From Eubacteriales bacterium (GTDB lineage: Bacteria; Bacillota; Clostridia; Oscillospirales; CAG-272), in contig JAZOML010000016.1 of assembly GCA_045653945.1 (NCBI GenBank), positions 12,344 through 76,343 on the forward strand: a stretch of 64,000 bases of DNA, read 5' to 3'. Numbering within the stretch: position 1 is the first letter of the stretch; each line of letters opens with the position of its first letter. The position numbers and the translations under genes are program-made. Under the pieces are notes generated by a model. It searched no databases. It was not told the origin of the DNA and saw only the letters and a list, made by a program, of their open reading frames with translations. Shown here one piece after another: positions 10,539-63,979 of this stretch.

Positions 10539-10580
10539 CTTTTCAAAAAAGCTTAACAAAAACTTTCGTCAGGGCTACCG
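10539..10580 (+). repeat. Family A palindromic element, copy 1 (degenerate hairpin; tail abuts the pcrA stop)
   Basis: CTTTTCAAAAAAGCTTAACAAAAACTTTCGTCAGGGCTACCG. Confidence 0.7.
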
Positions 10581-12956
10581 CTACACCCTTTTGATTTTCG
10601 CGTAGCTTCCCATCATCTTTTTCGTTCCGACGGTATCGAAGGCAATCTCGTAAAGCATATCCGTACCCATTTTAGTAACTCCCATTACGATACCGTTACC
10701 AAAAACAGGATGACTTACGCAGTCGCCCACCGCAAACGTTTCCCCTGTACCCTTATGAATGGCAGGCTTTACAGTCGGCTTGCGCCCAAACTCACTTGAT
10801 ATATAATCTCCCGTACCGGAAGACGTACCCTTAGGCACAAATCCCGTACCGCCAAAGCGTGGCTTTTCGGCAGGCTTTTCCACGTCAAGCATTGCAGGCG
10901 GAAGATTTGAAAAGAACGGCGATAGCTTATTATACGAGGTTCTACCGTAAATAAGACGCTCTCTTGTATGCGTTAAGAATAGCCTTTGCTTTGCTCTTGT
11001 TACCGCAACGTAGGCAAGACGTCGTTCCTCCTCCATTTCCACTTGGTCGTAAAGCGACTGCGAGGAAGGAAAAATGCTTTCCTCAAGCGCAGGCAGGAAT
11101 ACGACGGGGAATTCAAGCCCCTTTGCACTGTGAACCGTCATCATTACAACCGCCTCGGCATCGGGGTCGTAGTTGTCAATATCCGCAACAAGCGCCATTT
11201 CCTCAAGGAACGCCGAAAGCGAGGCGTCCTCTCTTTCCTTTGCAAACGCAACGGCGTTTGAGATAAGCTCCTCTGCGTTTTCAAGACGGCTCTTACCCTC
11301 AAGCTCGTCCTGAGCCCTTAGCATATCACGGTATCCGGTAAGAGTTAAAACCTTGTCGATAAGAACGTCAAGCGGCTCTGTTCTCGCAATCTCGCGAAGC
11401 CTTAAAATGAGATTTACAAACTCACCAAGCTTAGTTGAGACCTTTGAAAGCACCGGATACTCCTCGGCGTGTTTCATAACGTCAAACATCGACTTGCCCT
11501 CGGCGTTTGCGATATCGTAAACCGCCCCGACAGTGCTTTCGCCAATCTTACGCTTAGGCTCGTTTATGATACGCATAAGACGTACGTTGTCGGACGTGTT
11601 ATTTATAAGGCAAAGGTAAGCGACGATATCCTTAATTTCCTTACGCTCGTGGAATCGAAGACCGCCGAGCACTCTATAAGGTACGCCGCTCCTTGTAAAT
11701 GCGCTTTCAAGAGAGTTTGAAAGCGCGTTCATACGGTAAAGAATTGCAAAATCGTTAAGCGAACGTCCCTCGGTACGCTTGAACTCAAGAATTTTATCTA
11801 CTATGTATCTTGCCTCGTCATTTTGCGTATCAAGTCTGCGTAGCGAAACGGGTGTACCCACATCACCCGCAGTCCAAAGATTTTTGCCGTGTCGGTTGGT
11901 GTTTTGCTTGATTATCACGTTGGCAAGGTCAAGAATTGACTTGGTAGAGCGGTAATTTTGCTCTAATTTTACCACCTTGGCATCGCTTATTTCTCGGTCA
12001 AAATTAAGGATATTTTCAATATCCGCGCCTCTGAATCGGTAAATACTCTGGTCATCATCGCCAACAACCATAAGATTTCTATGCTTTGCGGAAATGAGCG
12101 ACGTGAGTACAAACTGTGCGTGGTTGGTGTCCTGATACTCATCAACGCAAACGTACCTGAACTTATTCTGACAGTATTCAAGTGCGTCGTTGTCCTCACG
12201 GAGCAGGCGTACCGTTTGCATAATTATATCGTCAAAGTCAACAGCGTTACTTGCCGTAAGTCTTTTTTGGTACTCACGGTAAAAATCCGCCATTTTCTTT
12301 TCTCGGAAGTCCTTTGCCTCAAAGGTTACGTCATAAGGCGTCAGCAGTCTGTCCTTTGCGTGGCTTATAAAGCCCTGCACCACCTTTGCGGGGAACATTT
12401 TTTCGTCGCCGCCCATATCCTTGATAACGGTGGTTATCAGCTTTTTGCTGTCATCGGCATCGTAAATGGTGAATTCCTTTCCGTATCCAATCCTATCACC
12501 ATATCTACGGAGTAGCTTTACACAAATCGAGTGAAACGTGCCTGCCCAAATAGCGACAGCCTCTTCCCCGACCTTCTTTTCGAGTCGGGTTTTCATCTCG
12601 TTTGCCGCCTTGTTGGTAAAGGTTATTGAAAGAATATTCCACGCTCTTACTCTATCCTCGGAGTATTTTTCAAGGAGTTTTTCAGCATCCTCTTTAGGTA
12701 AATTAATTGCGTTTTCAAGCTCCGCTATATCCGCCTCGCTCACCCACGCAGGCATACGCTCCGAAAAATATGCGTTGCCGTATCTTATCATATACCCTAT
12801 GCGGTTGACAAGCACTGTGGTTTTTCCGCTACCCGCACCCGCAAGAATAAGCAAAGGACCGTTTACAGTATAAACGGCTTCCCTTTGCTTTTCGTTTAAA
12901 TGGTCAAAAATTCTGTCAAATAAAGCCCTTTTGGCTTTTAAAAATCTTTCTTTCAC
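10581..12956 (-). CDS. pcrA: ATP-dependent DNA helicase PcrA (UvrD/Rep family)
   Basis: AGAGSGKT, ITFTNKAA, VDEYQDTN, VGDDDQSIY, LEQNYRST, MTVHSAKGLEF, EEERRLAYVAVTRA; Tudor-like C-terminus. Confidence 0.95.
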   Translation of the reverse strand: MKERFLKAKRALFDRIFDHLNEKQREAVYTVNGPLLILAGAGSGKTTVLVNRIGYMIRYGNAYFSERMPAWVSEADIAELENAINLPKEDAEKLLEKYSEDRVRAWNILSITFTNKAANEMKTRLEKKVGEEAVAIWAGTFHSICVKLLRRYGDRIGYGKEFTIYDADDSKKLITTVIKDMGGDEKMFPAKVVQGFISHAKDRLLTPYDVTFEAKDFREKKMADFYREYQKRLTASNAVDFDDIIMQTVRLLREDNDALEYCQNKFRYVCVDEYQDTNHAQFVLTSLISAKHRNLMVVGDDDQSIYRFRGADIENILNFDREISDAKVVKLEQNYRSTKSILDLANVIIKQNTNRHGKNLWTAGDVGTPVSLRRLDTQNDEARYIVDKILEFKRTEGRSLNDFAILYRMNALSNSLESAFTRSGVPYRVLGGLRFHERKEIKDIVAYLCLINNTSDNVRLMRIINEPKRKIGESTVGAVYDIANAEGKSMFDVMKHAEEYPVLSKVSTKLGEFVNLILRLREIARTEPLDVLIDKVLTLTGYRDMLRAQDELEGKSRLENAEELISNAVAFAKEREDASLSAFLEEMALVADIDNYDPDAEAVVMMTVHSAKGLEFPVVFLPALEESIFPSSQSLYDQVEMEEERRLAYVAVTRAKQRLFLTHTRERLIYGRTSYNKLSPFFSNLPPAMLDVEKPAEKPRFGGTGFVPKGTSSGTGDYISSEFGRKPTVKPAIHKGTGETFAVGDCVSHPVFGNGIVMGVTKMGTDMLYEIAFDTVGTKKMMGSYAKIKRV

Positions 12957-13002
12957 GCTTTTTGTAAAAAGCTTAGCAAAAACTTCCCTTACGGGCTACC
13001 GC
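12957..13002 (+). repeat. Family A copy 2 (hairpin abuts the pcrA GTG)
   Basis: GCTTTTT-gt-AAAAAGC-TTAGCAAAAACTT-CCCTTACGGGCTACCGC. Confidence 0.8.
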
Positions 13003-13123
13003 TCGTGCATCGTTCCGATTTTTGCGTAAGCTTGTGCTTTCCTTTTGCTTTTTATGATTTAAAATTCACTGTTGGCTTCAAATAGCGATGTCAACCCTGT
13101 TTGCAGAAAAGTCCGCATCGCCG

Positions 13124-13149
13124 TTTGCCTGCAGGCGCGCGCCTGCTTA
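13124..13149 (-). repeat. Family B stop-codon hairpin, copy 1 (recR)
   Basis: Minus strand TAA-GCAGGC-gcgc-GCCTGC-AGGCAAA. Confidence 0.8.
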
Positions 13150-13746
13150 GAAGTCCCGTCTACCCTCAATAGCACGAAGAAGTGTGAGCTTATCCGCATA
13201 TTCAATATCCGCGCCGACGGGTATACCGTAGGCAAGGCGGGTAATCTTTACGCCCGTAGGCTTGATAACTCGGCTGACGTACATAGCGGTAGTTTCCCCC
13301 TCAACGGTAGCGCCCGTAGCTATCATTACCTCCTCAGCGCCGATTTTCTTGATACGCTCGGGAAGTGTCATTATGTTGAGGTCCTGCACACCCTTACCGC
13401 CCTTTGGCGAGATAACTCCGCCAAGCACGTGGTATACTCCGCTATATTCCTTGATTTTTTCAAAGGAATTGACTGCGCGGCTGTCCTCAACCACACAAAT
13501 TATCTTTTTATCTCTGCTCTCGTCCGAGCAAATCGGACAAAGCGCTCCTGCGGTAATATTTCCGCACTCAGGGCAGGCGTGAATCGTTTTTTTAGCGTTA
13601 TCTATTGAAGATAGGAAGGCTGCAACCTCTGCTTCTCCCATATCAAGTACGCCAAATGCCATACGCTCCGCACTTTTTCTGCCTACACCGGGCAAACGGC
13701 GAAACGCCTCTATCATAACCTCAAGAGGTGCAATAAATTCACTCAT
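13147..13746 (-). CDS. recR: Recombination protein RecR
   Basis: LPGVGRKSAER HhH, C4 zinc finger (CPECGNIT..CPIC), YHVLGG, TOPRIM EGETTA, RLAYGIPVG. Confidence 0.95.
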   Translation of the reverse strand: MSEFIAPLEVMIEAFRRLPGVGRKSAERMAFGVLDMGEAEVAAFLSSIDNAKKTIHACPECGNITAGALCPICSDESRDKKIICVVEDSRAVNSFEKIKEYSGVYHVLGGVISPKGGKGVQDLNIMTLPERIKKIGAEEVMIATGATVEGETTAMYVSRVIKPTGVKITRLAYGIPVGADIEYADKLTLLRAIEGRRDF

Positions 13747-13751
13747 AGTTA

Positions 13752-14120
13752 TTAAAACATACCGGGCATTCCGGGAATACCAAGACCGCCCATCATACCG
13801 CCAAGACCACCGGTAACCTTACCCATTTGCTCAGCCGCATCGTCCTCAACCGTCTTAATTGCCTCGTTTACCGCCGCAACGATGATATCGGAAAGTGTTT
13901 CGATATCATCGGGGTCAACTATTTCAGGAGCTATGTCGATAGATACAACCTGCTTTTTGCCGTTCATTTTTACGGTTACAACACCGCCGCCTGCCTTGAC
14001 CTCGTATTCCTTAGCCTCAAGCTCAGCCTGTACGCGAGCCATATCCTCCTGCATTTTCTTAATCATTCCCTGCATATTTGCAGGGCCGCCTCTGTATTCG
14101 TTTGGAATTCTTGCTTTCAT
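13752..14120 (-). CDS. ybaB: YbaB/EbfC nucleoid-associated protein
   Basis: GGGVVTVKMNG, DIETLSDIIVAAVNEA; conserved dnaX-ybaB-recR order. Confidence 0.92.
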   Translation of the reverse strand: MKARIPNEYRGGPANMQGMIKKMQEDMARVQAELEAKEYEVKAGGGVVTVKMNGKKQVVSIDIAPEIVDPDDIETLSDIIVAAVNEAIKTVEDDAAEQMGKVTGGLGGMMGGLGIPGMPGMF

Positions 14121-14160
14121 TTCGGTCCTATCCTTTCAGTATAGTTTTATAGGTAAATTA

Positions 14161-15750
14161 TTAATTATCGTCAATGTCATCAAGGTCATCAAGAGGACTT
14201 CTTTCCTCTTTGTTTTTGCTTCCGTTTTCTACGAAATCAATCTTGTCCGCAGCTATCGGTGCTGCCGCAAAGGTTACGGAAAGATTAGCAATCAACGCCT
14301 TGGTTTGCGGAGTGTCAAGCATATCCTTTGCCATAGCCCCGTCAACTCTTATAACGAGCCGTCCGTTCATTTCATAAGCTCTTGAAACCTTCATAAACGG
14401 TGCGAGCGCAGGATTGGTGTCCCCCACTTTTTTTACCGCCTCTGCCCACCAAGGCGCTTGCTTGGGCGCACTCCTTACCGATATGTCGCTGCTCGGCTTA
14501 ATCGGCTCAACGGGTGGAGGCGTTACCGCTTTTTTATAGGATACGGTAGTCGACACACTCGGCGTTGCAGCTGCGCTTAAAGGCGGCGTAACAGACACTG
14601 TGCCGCCCACTATTCGCTCTTCAAGAGCCGTTATTCTCGCCGCAAGTCCCTGTACCCCGGTATCAAGCTTATCATCGCACATTTTGAGCAGCGCCATCTC
14701 AGCGCAAAGCCTCTTACTTGCGCCGACTCTGAGCATATTCGTATGAGCCTCCTCAAGTATGGCGCAGTGTCGCATAAGCGTTGCGCCGTTAAAGGACGAG
14801 GTAAGCGTCTTTATCATTTCATATTCCTCGCCCGTAAGGTCGAGATAGCTTTCAGGAGTCTTTGCAGTCCTGAAAACAAGCATATCACGGTAAAAATCGG
14901 TAAGCTCCTGCCAGAATACTGTCATTTCGGTAGCTGATGAAACGATTTTAGCAACGATATCAAACAACTTGTCCGTATCCTTATCCTTAATCGCCTGCAC
15001 AACCTCAGCCGACTTTTCACGCCCGATTGCACCCGTTATAGCCTTGACCGTGTCAAGAGTTACGGTGCTTCCGTCGCCTGCACAAAGCTCAAGAAGACTG
15101 ATAGCATCACGCATACCGCCCTGAGCCATTCGTGCAATAACTTTTGCCGCCGCAGGCTCGGTTTTTATCCCCTCTTGCTCGGAAATATAAAGAAGCCTGT
15201 TTGCAATAACCTCTGCGGAAATACGGCGGAATTCAAATTTTTGGCAACGGGAAAGTATGGTCGATGGTATCTTTTGCTGCTCGGTTGTCGCCAGAATAAA
15301 TACTACTCTTGCCGGCGGCTCTTCAAGCGTTTTAAGTAGCGCATTGAAGGCACTTTGCGTAAGCATATGAACCTCGTCTATTATGTAAACTCGGTTTTTG
15401 AGCATCGAGGGGGCGTACATTACCTCCTCACGTATATCTCTAATGTAGTCAACACCCGTATTAGATGCGGCGTCCATTTCAATAACGTCGGTAGTACGCT
15501 CCTCATCTATTGCACGACAAGCATCACACTTGCCGCAGGGACTTCCGTCTACCGGTGCAAGGCAGTTTACCGCCTTAGCGAGCAGCTTTGCGCAGGTGGT
15601 CTTACCCGTACCGCGTGAGCCGCAAAACAAGTATGCGTGAGAGCATCTATCGTTCTTTACCTCATACTTAAGCACAGAGGTTATATGCTCCTGACCGCAG
15701 ACAGAATCAAAATCCTTCGGTCTCCATTTACGATATAGTGCTTGATACAT
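14161..15750 (-). CDS. dnaX: DNA polymerase III subunit gamma/tau
   Basis: ALYRKWRPKDF, GSRGTGKT, EMDAASN, IIDEVHML, NALLKTLEEP, SRCQ. Confidence 0.95.
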   Translation of the reverse strand: MYQALYRKWRPKDFDSVCGQEHITSVLKYEVKNDRCSHAYLFCGSRGTGKTTCAKLLAKAVNCLAPVDGSPCGKCDACRAIDEERTTDVIEMDAASNTGVDYIRDIREEVMYAPSMLKNRVYIIDEVHMLTQSAFNALLKTLEEPPARVVFILATTEQQKIPSTILSRCQKFEFRRISAEVIANRLLYISEQEGIKTEPAAAKVIARMAQGGMRDAISLLELCAGDGSTVTLDTVKAITGAIGREKSAEVVQAIKDKDTDKLFDIVAKIVSSATEMTVFWQELTDFYRDMLVFRTAKTPESYLDLTGEEYEMIKTLTSSFNGATLMRHCAILEEAHTNMLRVGASKRLCAEMALLKMCDDKLDTGVQGLAARITALEERIVGGTVSVTPPLSAAATPSVSTTVSYKKAVTPPPVEPIKPSSDISVRSAPKQAPWWAEAVKKVGDTNPALAPFMKVSRAYEMNGRLVIRVDGAMAKDMLDTPQTKALIANLSVTFAAAPIAADKIDFVENGSKNKEERSPLDDLDDIDDN

Positions 15751-15796
15751 AGTTTATCCCCCTATATAGTTTCCTGATTTGAACAGGGATATGGTC

Positions 15797-15896
15797 GCTT
15801 TTTGAAAAAAGCTTAGCAAAAACTTCTTTTACACCGTTGCCATAGACTTTTTTGTAGATTTTACACCTGTTTTTTATCTATGGCAACGGTGTAAAA
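15797..15896 (+). repeat. Family A copy 3 with a perfect 20-bp inverted repeat as its tail
   Basis: GCTTTTT-ga-AAAAAGC-TTAGCAAAAACTTC, then TTTTACACCGTTGCCATAGA (15827-15846) / TCTATGGCAACGGTGTAAAA (15877-15896). Confidence 0.85.
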
Positions 15897-15974
15897 TATC
15901 TTTCTTTAAAGCCTTCAAAGAGCCCCCGTCAAAGCAGCAAACATCTTGAAAGCTGAAATACAGTAAATTAAATA

Positions 15975-16303
15975 GCGACGAAGTGAGCAAAGCGATGCTT
16001 TATTTGACATAAAGCGAGCCGCTCACAAGGATGAAACGAAGTATTACACGTTTTTGCAAAGATATAATCTGCCGAAGAAAAATTGCGTAAGACTAGGCGC
16101 GACGAAGCGAGCAAAGCGAAGCTTTATTTGACATAAAGCGAGCTGCTCACAAGGATAAAACGACGTATTACACATTTTGCAAAGACATAGTCTGCCGAAG
16201 AAAAATTGTGTAAGACTAGGCGCGACGACGCGAGCAAAGTGAAGCTTTATTTGACATAAAGCGAGCTGCTCGCAAGGATGAAACGACGTATTACACGATT
16301 TTT
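15975..16303. repeat. Tandem array of ~123-124 bp units, about 2.7 copies
   Basis: Units start at 15975, 16099 and 16222 (GCGACGAAGYGAGCAAAGCGAAGCTTTATTTGACATAAAGCGAGC...); internal hairpin GCTTTAT-ttgac-ATAAAGC. Confidence 0.9.
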
Positions 16304-16339
16304 CAAAAGCAGAAGGCAAGATACGGGATACGGCCATAC

Positions 16340-16594
16340 ACCTCACTCCGAACACGATTATATACACGGTAACCACGGTTCACGCTCGGAACAGGCACTC
16401 TCGTGGCACATCAAACATACCCCTTAATGCTGCTCGGTGCGCCCGCCTGACATGGTTCGAGGCCATTGATTGCACAAGACCCATTCGTCAACACGATTCC
16501 ACATAGTGCAGACTGCACATAATCGGCCCTCGGATCGGAAACCACCCCTACTGTAGCGGATTGTAGGTTACAGGGCACCGCTAGTTCCCCGGCC
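16340..16594 (-). ncRNA. ffs: Large (Bacillus/Clostridium-type) SRP RNA; ends approximate
   Basis: Alu domain GGGGAACTAGCGGTGCCCTGTAACCTACAATCCGCTACAGTAGGG and helix 8 GAACCATGTCAGG...AGCAGCATTAAG. Sits upstream of dnaX, like scr in B. subtilis. Confidence 0.88.
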
Positions 16595-16630
16595 GGTATG
16601 ACCTTATTCCGTATCTTGCCTTGCTTATAT

Positions 16631-16659
16631 ATTATAACCTAATATAAATTATTTTGCAA
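16631..16659 (-). promoter_or_regulatory. Sigma-A promoter of the SRP RNA
   Basis: TTGCAA-17 nt-TATAAT, predicting a start near 16624. Confidence 0.75.
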
Positions 16660-16825
16660 TACTTTTTTACAATGTTTTCAATTTTTTAACCTTTTTGTGC
16701 TTCCAAGATGCCAAAATTTCAAAAAAACACCTCACGTCCCCCTTGTATCATCTGAAAACACCTATATTTTCGCACAAATCAAGGCTTGAATATTGTAACA
16801 TTTTTTGAAATAATACAAATTCCTC

Positions 16826-16854
16826 TTGAAAGTCAGACGTATATGTTATATAAT
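16826..16854 (+). promoter_or_regulatory. Sigma-A promoter of the deaminase-tsaD operon
   Basis: TTGAAA-17 nt-TATAAT. Confidence 0.6.
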
Positions 16855-16894
16855 ATATTTAACTTTTTCAAAGTATTACATAGGAGTTTAAAAT

Positions 16895-17383
16895 ATGGAA
16901 AGAGTGTCTAAGGAAAACTACTATCTTGATATAGCGCAAACCGTTGCAACGAGAAGCACCTGCTTGCGCAAGTCATTTGGCGCAATAATCGTCAAAAATG
17001 ACACCATAATTTCAACGGGTTACAACGGCGCTCCCAGAGGACGCCTCAACTGCTCGGATATTGGCAAATGTATCAGAGATGAGCTCAATATTCCGCGCGG
17101 CGAAAGATACGAGCTCTGCCGCTCAGTACACGCAGAGGCTAACGCAATTATAGCCGCATCGAGAGAAAATATGCTCGGTTCAACCCTATATATGGCTTGT
17201 CTTGATTCTAAAACGGGTGAGCTTGTACCAAACACCTGCTCCTGCGCTATGTGTAAAAAGCTAATCCTCAACGCAGGAATTGAAAAGGTTGTTATCCGCA
17301 ATACAAATACGGACTATTTAACTGTTCGCGTTCGCGATTGGCTCGAGGACGACGATAGCCTTGAGGGCAGACGCGGTTATTAA
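16895..17383 (+). CDS. dCMP deaminase-family protein (ComEB-like)
   Basis: RSTCLR, TGYNGAPRG, HAEANA and PxxxC-like TCSCAMC zinc ligands. Confidence 0.85.
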   Translation: MERVSKENYYLDIAQTVATRSTCLRKSFGAIIVKNDTIISTGYNGAPRGRLNCSDIGKCIRDELNIPRGERYELCRSVHAEANAIIAASRENMLGSTLYMACLDSKTGELVPNTCSCAMCKKLILNAGIEKVVIRNTNTDYLTVRVRDWLEDDDSLEGRRGY

Positions 17384-18134: not shown

Positions 18135-18143
18135 AAGGGAGCT

Positions 18144-20160: not shown

Positions 20161-20208
20161 CGGTGGCGTTTATATAAAAGTTTTTGCGAGGCTTTTTTTC
20201 AAAAAGCC
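20161..20208 (-). repeat. Family A copy 4 (reverse orientation; hairpin faces the icd start)
   Basis: AAGTTTTTGCGA-GGCTTTTT-ttc-AAAAAGCC on the plus strand. Confidence 0.75.
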
Positions 20209-20233: not shown

Positions 20234-21400
20234 ATGAGAAACTACGAAAACGAAATTGCTATTGCAAAAGAAAAATTTGAAGCAGTGCTTCGCTCCCAGC
20301 TTGAAAGAAACGAGCGCATTATGGCTAACCGCGAGGACGTCGATTTTGAGCACCTCGACAAAATAGTCATCGGTATCTGCGGAGGCGACGGAATCGGCCC
20401 GATTATCACCAACGCTGCTCAAAGAGTTCTTGAATATATGCTTGCCGACGACGTAAAGAGCGGCAAGATTGAATTTAAGGTTATCGACGGACTCACCATT
20501 GAAAACCGTGTCGCTCATATGCAGGCTATCCCCGATGACGTTATGGCAGAGCTTAAAGCTTGCCACGTTATCCTCAAAGGCCCCACCACCACCCCCAAGA
20601 AGGGCGATCCGTGGCCGAACATCGAGAGCGCAAACGTTGCTATGAGAAAGGCTCTTGACCTCTTTGCAAACGTTCGTCCCGTAAGAGTTCCCGAGCAGGG
20701 AATTGACTGGACCTTCTTCCGCGAGAACACCGAGGGCAGCTATGCTGTCGGTTCTCAGGGCGTTGCGGTTACCGACGAGCTATCCGTTGACTTTTGCGTT
20801 GCAACCACCGAGGGTACCGAGCGTATCGCAAAGGCAGCCTTTGACTACGCAAGAAAAAACAAGAAGGGCAAGGTTTCCATTATCACCAAGGCTAACATTA
20901 TCAAGGCAACCGACGGTAAATTCCTTGACCTGTGCTACAAGGTAGCAAAGAACTACCCCGAAATTGAAACCGACGACTGGTTTGTTGACATCACCACCGC
21001 AAAGCTTGTTGACCCCAAGCGCCGTACCTCCTTTAAGGTATTCGTTCTTCCTAACCTCTACGGCGATATCATCACCGACGAGGCAGCTGAATTCCAGGGC
21101 GGAGTAGGTACCGCAGGCTCCGCTAACATCGGACACCGCTACGCTATGTTCGAGGCAATTCACGGCTCCGCTCCCCGTATGATCAGCGAGGGCAGAGGAC
21201 AGTACGCAGACCCCTGCTCTATGCTCAGAGCAACCGTAATGCTTCTCTCTCACATCGGCTATCAGGACAAAGCTGACGCTCTTGAGGCGGCTCTTGACAA
21301 GTGTATGTTCACCGAAAAGAAGTACGTAATCACGGGTCGCGACACAGGTGCAACCTGCGAGCAGTTCTCCGACTACGTAATGGAAACCATACTTTCTTGA
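20234..21400 (+). CDS. icd: Isocitrate dehydrogenase (isocitrate/isopropylmalate family, probably NAD-type)
   Basis: GDGIGP, SANVAMRK (Ser/Asn isocitrate signature, not IPMDH), FRENTEG, TKAN, NLYGDIITD, EAIHGSAP. Confidence 0.75.
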   Translation: MRNYENEIAIAKEKFEAVLRSQLERNERIMANREDVDFEHLDKIVIGICGGDGIGPIITNAAQRVLEYMLADDVKSGKIEFKVIDGLTIENRVAHMQAIPDDVMAELKACHVILKGPTTTPKKGDPWPNIESANVAMRKALDLFANVRPVRVPEQGIDWTFFRENTEGSYAVGSQGVAVTDELSVDFCVATTEGTERIAKAAFDYARKNKKGKVSIITKANIIKATDGKFLDLCYKVAKNYPEIETDDWFVDITTAKLVDPKRRTSFKVFVLPNLYGDIITDEAAEFQGGVGTAGSANIGHRYAMFEAIHGSAPRMISEGRGQYADPCSMLRATVMLLSHIGYQDKADALEAALDKCMFTEKKYVITGRDTGATCEQFSDYVMETILS

Positions 21401-21440
21401 AAGAAAGTAGGCAAAGAACTTCCCTCACGGGCTACCGCCC
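21390..21440 (+). repeat. Family A copy 5 (icd TGA lies at the hairpin loop)
   Basis: TACTTTCTT-ga-AAGAAAGTA-GGCAAAGAACTT-CCCTCACGGGCTACCGCCC. Confidence 0.85.
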
Positions 21441-21498
21441 ACAGCACAACTTTAAGTTTATGCTAAATCTCCACTTCACATCACGGCGGCGTAAAGAT

Positions 21499-21543
21499 CC
21501 TTCCCCTTTAGGGGAAGGGGAACCGCAATAGCGGTGGATGAGG
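21499..21543. repeat. Different REP-like double hairpin
   Basis: CCTTCCCC-ttta-GGGGAAGG, ACCGC-aata-GCGGT, then GGATGAGG. Confidence 0.6.
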
Positions 21544-21572
21544 CTTTGAAAGAAAGTAGGCAAAGAACTTCC
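21544..21572 (+). repeat. Family A copy 6 (27-bp exact duplicate of 21397-21423)
   Basis: TTGAAAGAAAGTAGGCAAAGAACTTCC. Confidence 0.85.
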
Positions 21573-33788: not shown

Positions 33789-34495
33789 AATTCATTAAAG
33801 TAGACACATACGCAGAGCTCAGCAAAATCGCAGCCGACCTCATCGCAGAGCAGGTAAAAAATAAGCCTAATTGCGTGCTCGGACTTGCAACGGGAAGCTC
33901 TCCCGTCGGCACCTATGCCAACCTTATCAAAATGTATGAGAACGGCGAGCTTGACTTCTCTGCCGTTACCTCGGTAAACCTCGACGAATACGTCGGACTT
34001 GACGGTGATAACGACCAAAGCTACCGCTACTTTATGGACCATAACCTCTTTTCTCATATTAATATTAATAAGGAAAACACCCACGTCCCCAGCGGCAAGG
34101 CAGAGGACCTGAAAGCCGAAGGACTCCGCTATGACGCTTTTATAAAGAGCCTCGGCGGTATCGACCTTCAACTTCTCGGAATCGGTCTTGACGGACACAT
34201 CGGCTTTAACGAGCCCGACGAATTCTTTACCGCTGAAACACACGAGGTCGTGCTCGATGAGTCCACAATAGAGGCAAACGCACGCTTCTTTGCATCAAAG
34301 GACGACGTTCCCACTAAGGCGATTACAATGGGTATGCTCTCCATTATGCAGGCGAAAAAGATTCTTCTCATCGCAAACGGCGAGAAGAAATGGGACATTC
34401 TGCAAAAGTCCTTCTACGGCCCGATAACCCCCTTTGTTCCTGCCTCTATTCTTCAGCTCCACCCCGACGTAACTGTTATTTATTCGGCTTTTTAA
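33785..34495 (+). CDS. nagB: Glucosamine-6-phosphate deaminase
   Basis: LGLATGSSP, NLDEYVG, LLGIG.DGHIGFNEP, PASILQLH. Confidence 0.95.
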   Translation: MKFIKVDTYAELSKIAADLIAEQVKNKPNCVLGLATGSSPVGTYANLIKMYENGELDFSAVTSVNLDEYVGLDGDNDQSYRYFMDHNLFSHININKENTHVPSGKAEDLKAEGLRYDAFIKSLGGIDLQLLGIGLDGHIGFNEPDEFFTAETHEVVLDESTIEANARFFASKDDVPTKAITMGMLSIMQAKKILLIANGEKKWDILQKSFYGPITPFVPASILQLHPDVTVIYSAF

Positions 34496-34531
34496 AAAAA
34501 GCCTACCAAAAATTTTTGTACGGCTACGCCC
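34486..34531 (+). repeat. Family A copy 7 (nagB TAA lies in the hairpin)
   Basis: GGCTTTTT-aa-AAAAAGCC-TACCAAAAATTTTT-GTACGGCTACGCCC. Confidence 0.75.
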
Positions 34532-34760: not shown

Positions 34761-34832
34761 TCGCTTACACCGTTACCTTATCGGTGGCGGTGTAAGCGAA
34801 GTTCTTTGCCGAGGCTTTCTTTCAAGAAAGCC
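34761..34832 (-). repeat. Family A copy 8 (reverse) with a 17-bp hairpin tail, next to the nifJ stop
   Basis: TCGCTTACACCGTTACC-ttatc-GGTGGCGGTGTAAGCGA-AGTTCTTTGCCGA-GGCTTTCTT-tc-AAGAAAGCC. Confidence 0.85.
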
Positions 34833-58495: not shown

Positions 58496-58504
58496 ATTCT
58501 TCTC

Positions 58505-58549
58505 GCTTTCTTGCAGAAAGTCCGGCAAAAGCTTTTATACAGCTTCGCC
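58505..58549 (+). repeat. Family A copy 9 (10 nt before the ilvB ATG)
   Basis: GCTTTCT-tgc-AGAAAGT-CCGGCAAAAGCTTTT-ATACAGCTTCGCC. Confidence 0.75.
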
Positions 58550-58786
58550 AAAAGCCTTCTTATGCTGTTTTTTTCTACGATGTGTGTGAATTTCACACTG
58601 AATAATTTATATACACCTGCGGTTGCCACTCGGCTTCCGCAAAACGGATTTTATTTTATCACAAATAAATACAAATTTCAACACCTATTTATATAAATTA
58701 ATAATCGCGAATCATAAATGTTCTTTTTTTGCATCAAGTTGTTAATTTATTTGGATACAAAAACGAATATTCTCATTTTTTATTCA

Positions 58787-59473
58787 TTATTTTTTCTTCT
58801 TGTTGCCGAATTTTGAGGTAAGCGCAATCTTATCCTCTTCATTTACTCTTATACCCGCAACCGTTGCGTTTTTGAAAATAATTCCCGGCACAACGCAATC
58901 AATTCTGATACTGCAAAAGCGCTTGTTGATTCGGCGGTTGAATTCATCCACCATAAAATCGGTATAGAAAATCGGCTGATCCGCCTCCTCGAACATCTGC
59001 ACAAGTACCTGTGATGCGCACTTACGAAAGCCTGCGGTTATAGCCGATGCGCACTCGGTAAGATTGACAGTACCCTGCGCCTTATCGAAATACTGATAAA
59101 ATGCATAAGGGTCATCAAGCCCCGCAACAAGGGTACCGTTTGCGCCTACGTTGATTTTTGCGCCGTCAAGAAACTTGTAAGTAATGGCAAGTGAGCCGAT
59201 GCCCCACGACATAGCGGTAAACGGGCGGTTGCTGACGTAAAGCACTCTCATTTTTTTACCCAGATGCTCGTTTGGAATAACCCTTGCTAACTTCTTTTTT
59301 ATACAAACACGCAAGCTTTTTACTACCTCGTCCTCAACGATTATAAGGGCGTGATAGTTAAGCGGAACGGAAATCTGCATACCCTCGTCAAAGATAAACG
59401 GTGCGGTCATTTCCATTACACGTCCGCTGTTGACGTCGCGCTCGTCTATGGTTATCAGCTTTTCGTCTGCCAT
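58787..59473 (-). CDS. SPFH/Band-7-like domain protein
   Basis: QISVPLNYHALII, MSWGIG, INVGANG, LDDPYAF resemble the SPFH (Band_7_1) type; similarity judged by eye. Confidence 0.55.
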   Translation of the reverse strand: MADEKLITIDERDVNSGRVMEMTAPFIFDEGMQISVPLNYHALIIVEDEVVKSLRVCIKKKLARVIPNEHLGKKMRVLYVSNRPFTAMSWGIGSLAITYKFLDGAKINVGANGTLVAGLDDPYAFYQYFDKAQGTVNLTECASAITAGFRKCASQVLVQMFEEADQPIFYTDFMVDEFNRRINKRFCSIRIDCVVPGIIFKNATVAGIRVNEEDKIALTSKFGNKKKK

Positions 59474-59588
59474 AAAGCTCCCCCCTAAAAACATATTTTC
59501 TCACATTTTATATTTTATAATAAATATAAGCAAATGTCAAGTGAATTTATATAAAAATACCTTCTTTACCTTCAAAAGCGAGCAAATC

Positions 59589-59612
59589 AAAAACGCACCC
59601 GAAGGTGCGTTT
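59589..59612 (-). terminator. Intrinsic terminator after the HAD gene
   Basis: CGCACC-cgaa-GGTGCG with a T5 tract on the minus strand. Confidence 0.7.
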
Positions 59613-59614
59613 CG

Positions 59615-60355
59615 TTATATTTTAAATATTTCAAGGGGGACGTCAGTTAAAATTCCACCCGTTTCCCTTGCAAGCTCGGGCGAAAACGCATAGCGTACCC
59701 CCGCCTTGCCCAGCATATCGGCATCGTCGCTTACAACGTCGCCCGCCGCCACTGTTTCTCCCGAAAGCACACCCGCACGCATCATAAGGTCGGATAGCGC
59801 CGCCCCCTTAGAGGCAAATCGGTTTATGTACTCCTCAAGACCGTTGCGTGAATACCAAAGCTTCAGTCCGTTTGGTGCACGTCCGAAAATCGGTTCGTTT
59901 CCAACGCCAAGAAAGGAAATTTTGTAAATAGGGCGCTTAACCTGAGTCATACAGGTAATTTTCGTTACCCCTCCGTGCTCACGGCAAAGCTCATCATACC
60001 GTCCGTTTTGGTCGCCGTATATGTAGACCTCAGCATCGCCCGAAAGCATAACGGCAACGCCTCTATCCCTTGCGGCTTTGAGCGCCAAAATTACGTTTTC
60101 TGCGCTGACGGGCTTACTGTAATGCGTTTTTCCGCCTTTAATTCCAACCGCACCGCCGCAGCAGTAATAGTAAATTTCCTCACTGTCAATCGGAAAAGGC
60201 ACACGCAAGGACGGGTAGCTTCTTCCGGTTATGATAGCAACCTTAACACCCTTGTTAAGTGCCGTTTTTATAGCGTTTTCAACCTCGGTGGATATTCGCT
60301 TTTCGCCTCTGGGCAAAAGTGTTCCGTCAAGGTCGCTTGCAATTAATTTTATCAT
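59615..60355 (-). CDS. Cof-like HAD-superfamily hydrolase
   Basis: IASDLDGTLL, IITGRS, SKGAAL, AAGDVVSDDADML. Confidence 0.85.
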   Translation of the reverse strand: MIKLIASDLDGTLLPRGEKRISTEVENAIKTALNKGVKVAIITGRSYPSLRVPFPIDSEEIYYYCCGGAVGIKGGKTHYSKPVSAENVILALKAARDRGVAVMLSGDAEVYIYGDQNGRYDELCREHGGVTKITCMTQVKRPIYKISFLGVGNEPIFGRAPNGLKLWYSRNGLEEYINRFASKGAALSDLMMRAGVLSGETVAAGDVVSDDADMLGKAGVRYAFSPELARETGGILTDVPLEIFKI

Positions 60356-60357
60356 CC

Positions 60358-60408
60358 GCTTTTCGAGAAAAGCTTGGCAAAAGCTTCTCTCACAACGCCT
60401 CCGTCGTG
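60358..60408 (+). repeat. Family A copy 10 (2 nt before the HAD ATG)
   Basis: GCTTTTC-ga-GAAAAGC-TTGGCAAAAGCTT-CTCTCACAACGCCTCCGTCGTG. Confidence 0.85.
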
Positions 60409-60455
60409 TTTAGTTTAAATTTATCGTTTTAATTTGTGAAAGAATTTAATTAATA

Positions 60456-60479
60456 TTTCGCTGTCGGGCGTTCCCGACC
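60456..60479 (+). repeat. Family C 24-mer, copy 2
   Basis: Identical to 8723-8746. Confidence 0.8.
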
Positions 60480-60509
60480 GCCGTCATTTGCCTATCGGTG
60501 CTTACCAAC

Positions 60510-60947
60510 TTATTTGCTACCCGTCGAACCAAATCCGCCCGCACCGCGTACGGTATCGGAAAGCTCGTCTACCTCGGCGTACTCAACGGGAATATAAGGC
60601 GCAACAACCATCTGTGCAATTCTTTCACCGCACTCAAAGGTTTGCGGCTCAGTTCCGTGATTGTGGAGCGCAACTTTTATCTCGCCACGATAGTCGCAGT
60701 CGATAACTCCGACCTTGTTTGCAGGCGCAAGTCCCTTTTTACAAGCCATACCGCTTCTTGCATAAACAAGACCAACCGTACCCTCGGGAAGCTCAACCGC
60801 TATACCCGTACCTATAAATTTTGTTTCGTTTGGTGCGATAGTAACCTCTCCGTCAGTAACTGCGTAAAGGTCAGCACCGGCAGCATAAGGGCTGCCGTAG
60901 GTGGGCATTTTTGCCCTTTCATCAAGCTTTTTAAAGTTAACTTTCAT
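60510..60947 (-). CDS. dut: dUTP diphosphatase
   Basis: AAGADL, ARSG, GVIDCDYRGE, RIAQ, RGAGGFGSTG. Confidence 0.97.
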   Translation of the reverse strand: MKVNFKKLDERAKMPTYGSPYAAGADLYAVTDGEVTIAPNETKFIGTGIAVELPEGTVGLVYARSGMACKKGLAPANKVGVIDCDYRGEIKVALHNHGTEPQTFECGERIAQMVVAPYIPVEYAEVDELSDTVRGAGGFGSTGSK

Positions 60948-60952
60948 TTTTT

Positions 60953-61000
60953 CACACTTTCTGAAGAAAGTGTGGCAAAGACTTCTCTTACTACGCTTCC
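60953..61000 (+). repeat. Family A copy 11 (5 nt before the dut ATG)
   Basis: CACACTTTCT-ga-AGAAAGTGTG-GCAAAGACTT-CTCTTACTACGCTTCC. Confidence 0.85.
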
Positions 61001-61020
61001 TTCAACGTTTTATTTAAATT

Positions 61021-61560
61021 TTATAGCTTTTCGTCCTTAAGCCCTTCCCAGAAGCAGATTTCACCCGCTTTTTCGGTTTTGCGAAGGTCGATAATTCTTT
61101 GATTCATTGAGCCTCTAAAACGAAGCCGCAGGTTTTTCTTTTCCGCCACAAAGCGTCCGTCAACAAGAAAATCAATCATTGACAGCATCTCGTCCGTAAC
61201 CTCGCAACGAGCCCTGCTCTCGCTTTTTAATTCCTTATCGTAAAGATAACCCGTATAGCACCAAACGTCCTTTTCGGGACACTCCTTTTTAAAACGGCGG
61301 AGCAGCTTAACAAGCTCCCTTTGGTTGCAGGGCTCAAACGGTTCGCCGCCAAGAAGCGACAGTCCGTCTATTCTGGGATTAGACACAAGCTCAATAACCG
61401 TATCCTCGATTTCCTTTGTGTACGGCTGACCGTATTCAAAATCCCAAGCCTCAGCGTTAAAGCACTCGGGACAGTGGTGCGTACAACCCGAAACAAACAG
61501 TGAAACTCTTATTCCCTCGCCGTTTGCAACGTCATAATTTTTTATATTAGCGTAATTCAT
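61021..61560 (-). CDS. nrdG: Anaerobic ribonucleotide reductase activating enzyme
   Basis: DVANGEGIRVSLFVSGCTHHCPECFN, LGGEP, LVDGRF, FRGSMNQR. Confidence 0.96.
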   Translation of the reverse strand: MNYANIKNYDVANGEGIRVSLFVSGCTHHCPECFNAEAWDFEYGQPYTKEIEDTVIELVSNPRIDGLSLLGGEPFEPCNQRELVKLLRRFKKECPEKDVWCYTGYLYDKELKSESRARCEVTDEMLSMIDFLVDGRFVAEKKNLRLRFRGSMNQRIIDLRKTEKAGEICFWEGLKDEKL

Positions 61561-61573
61561 AACTTTTCCTTAA

Positions 61574-61601
61574 ATAAAGGCGAACAAATGTCCGCCTTTA
61601 T
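61574..61601. other. Intercistronic hairpin between nrdD and nrdG
   Basis: ATAAAGGCG / CGCCTTTAT arms. Confidence 0.5.
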
Positions 61602-61614
61602 ATTTTGCTATTTA

Positions 61615-63741
61615 TTAGATGTGAAGCACACGTGCTCCGATTTCCTTTGTCTTACCTACGTTCCAGAAGTTTTCACCGAGGTATCCGCAGGTACGACGTG
61701 TAACGTTCATCTTTGCGTGGTCCTTGTTTCCACAAGCGGGACACTCCCACTCGCCGTCCTTGTTGATAATGATTTCGCCGTCAAAGCCGCACTCGTGGCA
61801 GTAGTCGCTCTTAGTGTTGAACTCAGCGTACTGAATATTATCGTAGATAAACTTAACGATTTCAGCCAGAGCCTTGAGATTGTGGCGCATATTCGGGATT
61901 TCAACGTAAGAAATAGCTCCGCCGGACGAAATGGTCTGGAACTGGCTCTCAAAGTCGAACTTGGAGAACGCATCAATTTCCTCACGGACGTCAACGTGGT
62001 AGGAGTTGGTGTAGTATCCCTTATCGGTAATATCCTTGATAGTACCGTAAAGTTTCTTGTCAATTCTTGCAAAGCGGTAGCAAAGCGACTCAGCAGGAGT
62101 ACCGTAAAGTGCAAAGCCAAGTCCCGTATCAGCCTTCCACTTGTCAGTAGCGGCTCTCAGACGCTTCATAACGCGAAGCGCAAATTCCTTACCCTTTTCG
62201 GTGGTGTGGCTCTCTCCGGTCATCGCAACGGTAACCTCGTAAAGACCGATGTAACCAAGCGAAAGCGTGGAATATCCGCCGTAGAGGAACTTGTCAATGG
62301 TTTCGCCCTTCTTAAGACGTGCGATAGCGCCGTACTGCCAGTGAACAGGGGAAACGTCGCTCGTTACACCCTGAAGCGAACGGTGTCTGCACATAAGAGC
62401 CTCGTAGCAGAGGTTAAGTCTTTCGTCCATAAGCTCCCAGAAAATCTTTTCGTCGCCCTTAGCGAGAATACCGATTTGAGGAAGGTTAATGGAAACAACG
62501 CCCTGATTGAAGCGTCCCTCGAACTTAAAGTTGCCGTTTTCGTCCTTCCAGGGAGAGAGGAAGGAGCGGCAGCCCATAGGACTGAATACGTTTTCGTCGT
62601 AGTTTTCACGCATCTTCTTTGCGGAGATGTAGTCGGGATACATTCTCTTTGCGGAGCACTTGACCGCAAGCTCGGTGATGTAGTCGTACTTGCCGCCCTT
62701 TAAGCAGTTGTGCTCGTCAAGAACGTAAACAAGCTTGGGGAACGCAGGAGTAATGTAAACTCCCTGCTCATTCTTGATGCCGACAAGACGCTGATTGAGA
62801 ATTTCCTCGATAATCTGAGCATTTTCCTCAATATACGGATCGTCCTTGTCAAGATTTAAGAACAGAGTTACAAAGGGGGACTGACCGTTGGTGGTCATAA
62901 GGGTATTGATTTGGTACTGAATAGTTTGAACACCCGAGCGAAGCTCGTCCTTGGTTCTTTCCTTTGCAAGCTTGTCGATTATCTCGTCGGGAATACCCTC
63001 TCCAACGCTCTCTTTTATGCTGCACTTAAATTTCTCGTAGCTCTTGCGCAAATACTTACCAAGGTGGTGAATATCAACACTTTGTCCGCCGTACTGCGAG
63101 CTTGCAACCGAAGCGATTATCTGAGTTACAATGGTACAAGCAACTTGGAAGCTCTTGGGGCTCTCAATGAGCTTTCCGTTCATAACGGTTCCGTTGTCGA
63201 GCATATTTCCAACGTCGATAAGACAGCAGTTAAAAATAGGCTGCAGGAAATAGTCTGCATCGTGGAAGTGAAGCACACCGTCGTCGTGCGCCTTGGAAAT
63301 CTTCTCAGGAAGAAGTACACGGCGGGTAAGGTCCTTGGAAACCTCGCCTGCGATAAGGTCGCGCTGTGTTGCCGCAGCGATTGCGTTCTTGTTGGAGTTT
63401 TCCTCCATTACGTCCTTATTTGTGTTACGGATAAGACTTAAAATAGAATCGTCCGTTGTGTTAGCCTTACGAACAAGTGCTCTTGAATAACGGTAAATGA
63501 TATAAATTCTCGCAAGCTGATAGTGGCCATACTCCATAAGCTTGTCCTCTATCATATCCTGAATGTCCTCAACGAGCATTCTCTTGCGTTTCTTTCCTTC
63601 TATATATTTAAGTATAGACTCAATCTCCGCCTCACTTGCTCTTTCGTGCTCGTCTACCTCGTTGTTTGCCTTTTGAATAGCAATGATGATTTTGCTTCTA
63701 TCATAGTCAATGATAGTGCCGTCTCTTTTTACTACCTGCAT
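61615..63741 (-). CDS. nrdD: Anaerobic (class III) ribonucleoside-triphosphate reductase with ATP cone
   Basis: VVKRDG ATP cone, NCCL, MGCRS, GRFNQGVVSINL, YGTPAESL, RRTCGYLG glycyl-radical motif. ATG 63741 has AGAGGAG upstream. Confidence 0.96.
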   Translation of the reverse strand: MQVVKRDGTIIDYDRSKIIIAIQKANNEVDEHERASEAEIESILKYIEGKKRKRMLVEDIQDMIEDKLMEYGHYQLARIYIIYRYSRALVRKANTTDDSILSLIRNTNKDVMEENSNKNAIAAATQRDLIAGEVSKDLTRRVLLPEKISKAHDDGVLHFHDADYFLQPIFNCCLIDVGNMLDNGTVMNGKLIESPKSFQVACTIVTQIIASVASSQYGGQSVDIHHLGKYLRKSYEKFKCSIKESVGEGIPDEIIDKLAKERTKDELRSGVQTIQYQINTLMTTNGQSPFVTLFLNLDKDDPYIEENAQIIEEILNQRLVGIKNEQGVYITPAFPKLVYVLDEHNCLKGGKYDYITELAVKCSAKRMYPDYISAKKMRENYDENVFSPMGCRSFLSPWKDENGNFKFEGRFNQGVVSINLPQIGILAKGDEKIFWELMDERLNLCYEALMCRHRSLQGVTSDVSPVHWQYGAIARLKKGETIDKFLYGGYSTLSLGYIGLYEVTVAMTGESHTTEKGKEFALRVMKRLRAATDKWKADTGLGFALYGTPAESLCYRFARIDKKLYGTIKDITDKGYYTNSYHVDVREEIDAFSKFDFESQFQTISSGGAISYVEIPNMRHNLKALAEIVKFIYDNIQYAEFNTKSDYCHECGFDGEIIINKDGEWECPACGNKDHAKMNVTRRTCGYLGENFWNVGKTKEIGARVLHI

Positions 63742-63790
63742 TTCAGTATCTCCTCTCTTTTTTGTATATATGTTATGGGGCAAATTATCA

Positions 63791-63819
63791 AGTATATCTA
63801 TTATATCCTACCTTGTCAA
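63791..63819 (-). promoter_or_regulatory. Sigma-A promoter of nrdDG
   Basis: TTGACA-17 nt-TATACT. Confidence 0.6.
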
Positions 63820-63844
63820 TATTTAATGTTGCATTTGCAACACT

Positions 63845-63892
63845 TCGCTATATCTTGTGTTTTTTCTTGCATTTTCAACATATATCTTGTAT
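63845..63892. promoter_or_regulatory. Tandem NrdR boxes
   Basis: TCGCTATATCTTGTGT (63845-63860) and AACATATATCTTGTAT (63877-63892) fit acaCwAtATaTwGtgt, 32 bp apart, upstream of nrdD. Confidence 0.75.
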
Positions 63893-63956
63893 GCAAACCG
63901 TCATTTTAACTATTTTCAAAATGTTGAATTTTTCCACAAAAACAGTTGTTTGCCCT

Positions 63957-63979
63957 AAAAAAGCTCCGCAAAAACTTTT
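63957..63979 (+). repeat. Family A copy 12 (left hairpin arm lost)
   Basis: AAAAAAGCTCCGCAAAAACTTTT. Confidence 0.55.

Follow-up and report, generated by a model that had tools for sequence, protein, structure and literature searches.

What is a short palindromic repeat that recurs a dozen times in 64,000 nucleotides (nt) of clostridial DNA and lies against one start or stop codon after another? The question is raised by a stretch of an Eubacteriales genome (positions 12344-76343 of contig C16, here called the window; the genome, labelled G000, comprises 1.70 Mb in 66 contigs with 45% G+C), in which a sequence-only reading had noticed twelve copies of a repeat that we call family A. That reading took the repeat to be either a family like the repetitive extragenic palindromic (REP) sequences or miniature inverted-repeat transposable elements (MITEs), domesticated as a translation-initiation or mRNA-processing module, or a mobile element that targets gene boundaries. 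The motif is present at each of the twelve positions, eight times as a complete copy and four times in degenerate or truncated form, among genes whose names are backed by Pfam (pcrA, dnaX, icd, rex, nagB, PFOR, ilvB, HAD hydrolase, dut, nrdG and nrdD). As judged from the sequences, covariation in the family shows that selection acts on a fold of three segments, for which an intramolecular triplex is the simplest candidate. The explanation that we favour, with a confidence somewhat above even, is that family A is a structure-coded, horizontally spread, selfish mosaic non-coding repeat that bursts in isolated lineages. The recurrence of its core across phyla, its clustering around the replication origin (oriC) and the sorting of its flanking modules by gene context are new here.

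The mirror rule of the core

The core is a unit of 28-35 nt: a weak pyrimidine/purine hairpin and, behind it, a purine tract that repeats the purine arm in mirror order and is thus the parallel complement of the pyrimidine arm. Its form is CTTTTT GA AAAAAG N0-6 GC AAAAA CTT, A/T-rich with tracts of 4-7 nt; GAGAAGTTTTTGCCAAGCTTTTTTCAAAAAGCGGG is a 35-nt example, and the pyrimidine/purine arm types include TCTTT/AGAAA, TTCTTT/AAGAAA and CTTTT/GAAAA. A copy was scored as complete if a perfect hairpin with a loop of 2-3 nt was followed by GC, a purine tract and CTT; the copy counts cover only perfect hairpins followed by the boxed purine tract, and gene positions are those of crude open reading frame (ORF) calls. 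For comparison we used 12 congeners (giving 13 genomes of the genus), 358 kb from G011, a second species, and 401 Clostridia genomes from 217 genera. The pattern used across genomes gives 39 hits in G000, and the hairpin count 93 perfect copies. Read backward, the pattern had no hit in 41 relatives or in the 401 Clostridia genomes, which places the family far above chance, and a reversed-genome control yielded no mirror copies.

The 93 perfect copies of G000 have 40 distinct hairpin sequences, with a GA loop in 81 copies and two to four base-pair types at six stem positions, so that the arms change in concert as had been proposed. What the sequence-only reading overlooked, and what is decisive, is that the tract behind the hairpin varies as well, as the mirror of the purine arm. 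The purine arm AAAAA is followed by the third tract AAAAA in 31 copies, AAGAAA by AAAGAA in 19, AGAAA by AAAGA and AAGAAAA by AAAAGAA in 16 copies each, GAAAA by AAAAG in 8 and AAAA by AAAA in 3. Over these six types, 59 third tracts agree with the mirror only, one with a direct repeat only and 34 are symmetric (mirror-compatible, 93 of 94), and when the third tracts were shuffled among the copies the matches averaged 24.5 and never exceeded 39, compared with the 93 observed. In the 358 kb of G011, 40 tracts are mirrored, none is direct and 25 are symmetric (65 of 65 compatible), and two further types, AAAAG/GAAAA and AAAG/GAAA, bring the number to at least eight over the two species. The rule extends to unrelated genomes and viral contigs: there, the variable positions of the three segments read T/A/A in 197 cases and C/G/G in 15, and the combinations C/G/A and T/A/G never occur.

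A direct repeat would suit alternative hairpins and an inverted repeat ordinary pairing; the mirror relation therefore points to triple-helix pairing. Watson-Crick pairing of the third tract with the first arm or with the upstream T-run was considered and rejected, since it leaves the mirrored G positions unpredicted and the T-run shows no covariation. On its own, the commonest hairpin does not exceed its shuffles in stability (-4.3 kcal/mol, z = -0.19), and the linkers of 0-6 nt and the connectivity of the strands are compatible with a triplex on either strand. Either strand of the core, when single-stranded or extruded from supercoiled DNA, could fold into an intramolecular triple helix. In the strand that carries the pyrimidine tract (tract, linker, pyrimidine arm, loop, purine arm), the tract would lie parallel to the purine arm in T.A-T and C+.G-C triads; in the strand with the purine tract, it would lie antiparallel in A.A-T and G.G-C triads. 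We infer that such a triplex forms in vivo, that a factor of the host or of the element recognises it during copying, and that selection acts on the DNA and not on an RNA form; the last point is favoured by the mixed orientation of the copies and by the copies that lie upstream of promoters. It has long been asked whether living cells ever select for intramolecular triple helices. In this natural family three segments shift together, through at least eight types in two species, by a mirror rule that only triplex pairing predicts, and its short, defined 35-nt sequences and natural compensatory mutants make the prediction directly testable.

It had been considered that the family might already be catalogued, but no Rfam family or paper matches it: above the gathering score the window yields only the signal recognition particle (SRP) RNA, nine repeat-rich loci gave only sub-threshold chance hits to miRNAs, and literature searches with core sequence strings returned only chance primer matches. 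The closest described kind seems to be the BoxC/PIT (potential intrastrand triplex)/TMECO repeats, described from E. coli and some 260 proteobacterial genomes (Holder et al. 2015, PMC4666352), of which family A would be an A/T-rich relative in layout and behaviour. TMECO has the consensus CCCTCNCCC N3-6 GGGNGAGGG N3 GGGNGAGGG, with G/C-rich blocks of 9 nt, and A/T-rich motifs were regarded as mostly chance in that study (PMC4666352). Family A has the three-block layout by which intrastrand triplex repeats are recognised (Y, R, R with short loops): a pyrimidine arm, a purine arm and a second purine block on one strand. Like these repeats, it occurs in many intergenic copies whose number is uneven among close relatives, is linked to variable loci and has no known function or mobilising enzyme. 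In contrast, it does not fit the TMECO consensus, as it is A/T-rich, has tracts of only 4-7 nt and shows no sequence similarity. What it would add, as far as the sequences tell, is a clean mirror covariation through at least eight tract types (not shown for TMECO), a core shared between phyla, promoter- and terminator-like modules, and confinement to the oriC region in this genus. With REP sequences and their mosaics (BIMEs), family A shares short palindromic units that lie between genes and at gene ends, often as inverted pairs and in mosaics with other modules, and that keep structure over sequence. Unlike REP, it has no RAYT/Y1 gene in the genus and no conserved 5' tetranucleotide of the GTAG type, it is not species-wide, and its mirrored third tract is not part of REP. 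The pneumococcal BOX and RUP elements, bcr1 of B. cereus and the Correia elements are likewise mosaic intergenic repeats that shuffle modules close to the start or end of a gene. Some of them supply a promoter or terminator, how they are mobilised is often unknown, and both Correia and RUP are bounded by inverted repeats with TA duplications. To our knowledge, none of them is related to family A in sequence, each is limited to one genus or species group, and none has a triplex-type mirror tract.

Spread across phyla and clustering around the origin

The family is patchily distributed. The search pattern was found in only four of the 401 sampled Clostridia genomes, one of them with 80 copies, and the repeat also occurs in records of Oscillospiraceae, Eubacteriales and Clostridia metagenome-assembled genomes (MAGs). 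A 28-nt core, CTTT(Y)TGAA(R)AAAGC NNN GCAAA(R)ACTT, is nearly unchanged across phyla: it is present in Acidocella, Rhodovastum and similar uncultured proteobacterial MAGs of 62-64% G+C (185 copies in one genome), in Desulfolunaceae (55 copies), Desulfatibacillaceae, Omnitrophota, Aminicenantes and several other Firmicutes, and in 65 viral contigs of IMG/VR that range from 30 to 72% G+C. The outer stem co-varies (GCCG/CGGC, CCCG/CGGG, CCAG/CTGG and CACG/CGTG). The alphaproteobacterial unit, about 135 nt long, is palindromic and composed of GGAAG, a hairpin, an A-tract, a GC hairpin, a T-tract, a hairpin and CTTCC, with copies about 90% identical and 80-100 BLAST hits per genome; its centre resembles a bidirectional terminator, and filled and empty orthologous spacers both exist. 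A segment of G045 about 1.15 kb long (L178:8543-9698), with copies of the 135-nt repeat on both sides, recurs with 91-94% identity at several sites in four alphaproteobacterial genomes (G043, G046, G048 and G050); this segment is probably an insertion sequence.

Within G000 the copies crowd around the origin. Contig C3, which carries dnaA, dnaN, gyrB, gyrA, recA, mnmE and mnmG as well as the switch of GC skew, has 28 perfect copies in 80 kb. With the order of contigs around oriC deduced from synteny between fragmented assemblies, 77 of the 93 copies fall on ten contigs (334 kb, 19.6% of the assembly) that are syntenic with two G011 contigs taken to flank dnaA, compared with 18 expected (p about 4e-39). 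If every contig with any alignment to these two is counted, 80 of the 93 copies lie on 33% of the assembly, and six large contigs from elsewhere (561 kb) have two copies. In G011 itself, the copies per 20 kb number 0, 1, 1, 1, 5, 0, 0, 5, 9, 11, 7 and 5 towards dnaA at the contig end, and the second contig, with a GC skew of opposite sign and taken for the far side of oriC, has 3, 5, 7, 5, 0 and 0, with none beyond 80 kb. The window corresponds to 22-78 kb of this second contig, and in a further congener (G009) 7 of 16 hits are on contigs syntenic with the window. The tract types are well mixed, with 17 of 74 neighbours of the same type and 15.8 expected, so that the cluster did not arise by local duplication of one copy. 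There is no polarity of orientation with respect to GC skew (40 to 53). In Proteobacteria and Desulfobacterota, the copies appear scattered over many contigs.

The survival of an A/T-rich core in Alphaproteobacteria of 64% G+C and in gut Clostridia, together with the confinement of all its types to the vicinity of oriC in the genus, could point to the machinery that copies it. It is tempting to go further and to see in the core the recognition structure of a pan-bacterial mobile DNA without an enzyme of its own, which a universal host process copies on a folded single strand, with the triplex as the selected form and a restriction to the origin in this genus; we consider this extension rather doubtful. 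If true, enzyme-less copying recognised through the triplex would explain how a 28-nt core stays near-identical from 30% to 72% G+C in at least five phyla, and the copying process, or the tolerance for it, would be limited to the origin-proximal domain in this Clostridia genus.

Gene boundaries, modules and rival explanations

How, then, do the copies come to lie at start and stop codons? In G000 the hairpin end points towards a gene start in about 56 copies and towards a gene end in about 37, and between co-directional genes the two orientations occur 38 and 23 times. The median distance is 20 nt past stops and 65 nt ahead of starts, and inverted copies frequently enclose a gene, their hairpins turned inward. 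The docking described by the sequence-only reading is real at several genes, and in 46 of 54 cases it is the hairpin end, not the tail end, that lies nearer to a gene (33 of 54 once a tail of 90 nt is allowed for); to a large extent, however, docking results from insertion into very short spacers, which measure 3-30 nt in relatives free of the element. The idea that the purine arm generally substitutes for a Shine-Dalgarno sequence was dropped, as A5 is the most frequent arm and the spacing covers 1 to 170 nt; AGAAAG is complementary to the 3' tail of 16S rRNA.

Read from the hairpin, a copy consists of a T-run with one or two C, hairpin 1, the third tract, CTT(C/T)T(C/G)T and one of several tails. 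In about 42 of the 93 copies the tail opens a long variable hairpin 2 with the base TTCTCTTAC/GTAAGAGAA; on the opposite strand, hairpin 2 is followed directly by a T-rich tract, and these 42 copies thus look like intrinsic terminators. The G000 copies (hairpin 2, then the T-rich tract) resemble bidirectional terminators in this respect, as does the alphaproteobacterial unit, in which the third tract, the GC hairpin and the T-tract correspond to the A-tract, stem-loop and U-tract. Unlike terminators, family A has the additional hairpin 1 that mirrors the adjoining tract, and many copies are oriented against transcription. Downstream of co-directional genes the terminator-like side points the wrong way, and a consensus scan called no terminator at the copies. 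Class 1 tails are devoid of the 5' arm of hairpin 2 and have instead a conserved block, GCGGGTAGCACCCGC-TGGCAAATAATTGATTTAGTG-TAAAAT-TTAAAC, that reads as a promoter-like weak -35 region, a 16-nt spacer and a good -10 region towards hairpin 1 (CTGGCA-16-TAAAAT); a consensus promoter scan flags sites in the dnaX and HAD copies. Class 3 tails contain a GGGC-TNCC-GCCC hairpin, and the long perfect forms of hairpin 2 are found mostly 3' of genes. The smallest unit (35 nt; GAGAAG, tract, GCCAA, hairpin, GGG) occurs as three tandem copies in the genome G002, and whole-unit satellites of 65 and 121 nt exist in two other genera. Regularly spaced hits in G023 and G020 had a CRISPR-like appearance, which was discarded because the units are such satellites with 96-98% identity. 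A sigma-54 promoter in TGGCAAATAATTGAT was rejected, since its spacing is one base short and GA replaces GC, as was an ops/RfaH site in GGCGGTAGCCC, the loop T of which is not conserved (GGTA, GGGA, GGCA). Intergenic regions of 0.8-1.0 kb on contigs C3, C50, C15 and C22 (e.g. recF-gyrB and gyrB-gyrA on C3) consist almost entirely of stacked modules, and are unusually long for a genome of 1.7 Mb.

The family is REP/MITE-like in being dispersed, non-coding and structure-keeping, as the sequence-only reading held; the corresponding spacers of sister species are free of the element, and the congeners have between 0 and 45 hits. In the conserved gene order nrdG-dut-HAD, the spacers of 73 and 154 nt in G000 are wholly element; the nrdG-dut spacer has 20-47 nt where resolved (G012, G004 and G009) and the dut-HAD spacer 3-19 nt in G012, G004 and G010 and 65 nt in G009, all with ordinary ribosome-binding sites. 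In the spacers recR-pcrA, tsaD-icd and icd-rex, G011 and G009 have copies at the other spacer end, in the other orientation or of another tract type, and these are therefore separate insertions into the same spacers. In G011, the closest relative, the two spacers that correspond to nrdG-dut-HAD (355 and 218 nt; L001:1156-1510 and 1940-2157) are filled by other repeats. In one of these, AACTTTTTCTTTGG-AAGAAAGAAGACA-CCAAAGAAAAAGTT, a purine tract is placed within the loop of a pyrimidine/purine hairpin, which may be a different arrangement of the same three-strand idea.

Patchy bursts, empty orthologous sites, independent insertions, tandem amplification and the use of both orientations are the reasons why we favour horizontal selfish spread over a conserved regulator. 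The core would be joined to interchangeable modules (hairpin 2, the promoter-like box and small GC tetraloop hairpins), copies would insert into the very short spacers of a compact genome, where they would abut and sometimes replace Shine-Dalgarno sequences, start and stop codons, and selection would sort the surviving combinations of modules between gene starts and gene ends. Several observations weigh against this explanation. The six tract types are confined to the origin-proximal fifth and well mixed, which simple selfish spread does not predict. The tails follow gene context, with ratios of 5' ends to 3' ends of 14:3 for class 1, 5:1 for class 2 and 1:8 for class 3, and the fact that several genes now rely on the element for their start, stop or ribosome-binding region suggests a function at the RNA level. 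Three other strains of the species, at about 98% identity, share the insertions, so that no movement shows on that time scale. Neither a mobilising enzyme nor terminal inverted repeats or a target duplication came to light, and in comparisons of filled with empty spacers the flanks are too diverged to give exact ends. Finally, the predicted triplex is short, with only 5-7 triads.

An RNA-level cassette is the alternative suggested by the sorting of the tails, and we regard it as unlikely. Before genes, its class 1 box would serve as a promoter, hairpin 2, the U-rich tract and hairpin 1 as a structured leader and an A-rich stretch as a landing site for the ribosome, and after genes it would form a structure in the 3' untranslated region; hairpin 2 and the U-rich tract would end opposing transcription, and a U.A-U triple helix on hairpin 1 would protect RNA ends. 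The class 1 box with its flagged sites is directed towards the gene, many hairpins are followed directly by GGAGG-like runs and ATG, native Shine-Dalgarno sequences have been lost at pcrA, HAD and dut, the centre of the alphaproteobacterial unit has the layout of a bidirectional terminator, and several 3' copies have canonical terminators downstream and must thus be transcribed. Such a cassette, and with it the earlier proposal of a domesticated translation-initiation or mRNA-processing module, is however disfavoured by the occurrence of both orientations between co-directional genes, by hairpin-to-start distances from 0 to about 170 nt, and by the nrdD and mocA copies, which lie upstream of canonical promoters and cannot act in the leaders of those genes. 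In addition, the sister species express the same genes from ordinary Shine-Dalgarno spacers of 3-47 nt without any element, the terminator-like side opposes transcription after co-directional genes, and the -35-like hexamer matches at only four of six positions.

Confinement to the origin domain raises the idea of a marker or organiser of this domain, with structural or protein-binding sites comparable to parS/ParB or the ram sites of RacA in Bacillus and with the position at gene ends as a secondary trait. The excess on the dnaA-flanking contigs over the two copies in 561 kb elsewhere, the climb in G011 from 0-1 to 5-11 copies per 20 kb towards dnaA and the drop to zero beyond 80 kb on the other contig, the G009 hits and the sharing of one domain by six mixed tract types all agree with it; yet the copies of Proteobacteria and Desulfobacterota are scattered, some congeners have none or very few, the variation of the arms would be intolerable for a sequence-specific protein, polarity relative to GC skew is missing, and the contig order comes from synteny only. 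We therefore give such a role little credence. Even less probable, to our mind, is a classical MITE or REP that is mobilised in trans by a Y1/RAYT, IS630-like or other transposase encoded outside these incomplete assemblies or on a plasmid or phage. The burst-like patchy distribution, structure-keeping hairpins, inverted pairs that bracket genes and the copies in viral contigs are what one would expect of it. A RAYT/TnpA(Y1) gene flanked by the repeats, as envisaged by the sequence-only reading, does not exist in the 13 genomes of the genus, however: PF01797 has no match there, the control search being positive in 6 of 14 known genomes. Moreover, no insertion sequence partner was found, terminal inverted repeats and target duplications were not seen, the genes around 143 cross-phylum copies are only housekeeping genes (RF3, BipA, MocA-type) and spurious ORFs over the repeat rather than a recurrent neighbour, and the Clostridial composite had no BLAST match in 72,556 plasmids and 50,697 phages.

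For annotation it is of practical note that in these genomes the element provides start and stop codons, and probably promoters, of housekeeping genes (pcrA, dut, HAD, icd and nagB).

The copies in the window

The hairpin-to-start distances reported earlier, 0 nt for the GTG of pcrA, 2 nt for the ATG of HAD, 5 nt for that of dut and 9 nt for that of ilvB, were reproduced, and no GGAGG lies in between; likewise, the stop codons of icd (TGA) and nagB (TAA) are formed by arm and loop and lie in the hairpin loops of their copies. The other distances are 28 nt for icd, with a normal AAGGAG between, 46 nt for dnaX and about 155-170 nt for mocA and nrdD. All copies are on the plus strand unless stated otherwise. 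The four incomplete ones are those at 10539, at 21544, which is devoid of its left arm, at 34486, where the third tract runs into T's, and at 63957, the hairpin of which is eroded.

Between the pcrA stop codon and the mocA promoter, a degenerate copy (10539-10568; CTTTT CA AAAAG, then ACAAAAAC) lies about 155 nt 5' of the mocA start, with the conserved TTGACA...TATTAT promoter downstream of it. The next copy (12957-12982) is a complete core, GCTTTTT GT AAAAAGC TTA GCAAAAAC, the hairpin of which adjoins the start codon of pcrA. Its class 3 tail (12983-13146), a CTTACG...CGTAAG hairpin 2 that contains the GGGCTACCGC tetraloop hairpin, fills the recR-pcrA spacer. The pcrA start codon (12954-12956) is a GTG that stems from the element and has no Shine-Dalgarno sequence; the same hairpin-GTG string is found again at dut and on contigs C3, C9 and C22. 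The gene is one codon shorter than all seven orthologues, which begin with ATG-(A/C)A(A/G) after a Shine-Dalgarno sequence. The complete core 5' of dnaX (15797-15822) is followed by a hairpin 2 (15823-15900) with a stem of 21 pairs, TTTTACACCGTTGCCATAGA / TCTATGGCAACGGTGTAAAA, that holds a promoter-like TTGCCA-17-TAAAAT directed towards dnaX. Between this element and the SRP RNA gene there is a tandem repeat of 123 nt (15975-16307; 2.7 copies, 92% identical), each unit of which has, on the minus strand, a small G(C/T)GAGC(A/G)GCTCGC hairpin and then TTTATGTCAA; the 110-amino-acid ORF called over it at 16044-16376 is probably spurious.

At icd, a complete core on the minus strand (GGCTTTTT GAA AAAAAGCC TC GCAAAAAC) with the start of its tail occupies 20161-20208 ahead of the gene. 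At its end, arm and loop of a complete core (21390-21418; TACTTTCTT GA AAGAAAGTA G GCAAAGAAC) make the stop codon, and a class 3 tail (GGGCTACCGCCC) follows that leads into a second core without its 5' part at 21544-21570 (together 21419-21570). The nagB stop codon lies in a core with an eroded third tract (34486-34515; GGCTTTTT AA AAAAAGCC TA CCAAAAATTT). The next copy, on the minus strand (34761-34832), had been placed at 34761, but this position is the far end of the tail: hairpin 2 covers 34761-34801 and the complete core 34802-34832, 7 nt past the PFOR stop codon. Read on the plus strand, hairpin 2 followed by AAGTTCTTTG resembles an intrinsic terminator for nagB, and the DNA of 34761-34810 folds with -25.1 kcal/mol (z = -6.7).

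The ilvB copy (58506-58534; CTTTCT TGC AGAAAG TCCG GCAAAAGC) is slightly degenerate and the sole copy of the window with a third tract that departs from the mirror rule, by one base. The HAD gene is preceded by the complete core GCTTTTC GA GAAAAGC TTG GCAAAAGC (60358-60383) and a tail of class 1 type (60384-60509) that fills the dut-HAD spacer and has a promoter-like TTCACA-17-TAAACT towards HAD. The same spacer contains an additional, separate GC hairpin, GGCGGTCGGGAACGCCCGACAGCG, with one compensable difference between strains, TCGGG here and TTGGG in three other strains. At dut, the complete core (CACACTTTCT GA AGAAAGTGTG GCAAAGAC; 60953-60981), the DNA hairpin of which has -7.7 kcal/mol, and the tail up to the nrdG stop codon (60982-61020) make the entire spacer of 73 nt an element, and this spacer is identical in three other strains. 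The last copy (63957-63980) is eroded and lies about 170 nt 5' of nrdD, upstream of both the nrdD promoter (TTGACA-17-TATACT) and the NrdR boxes.

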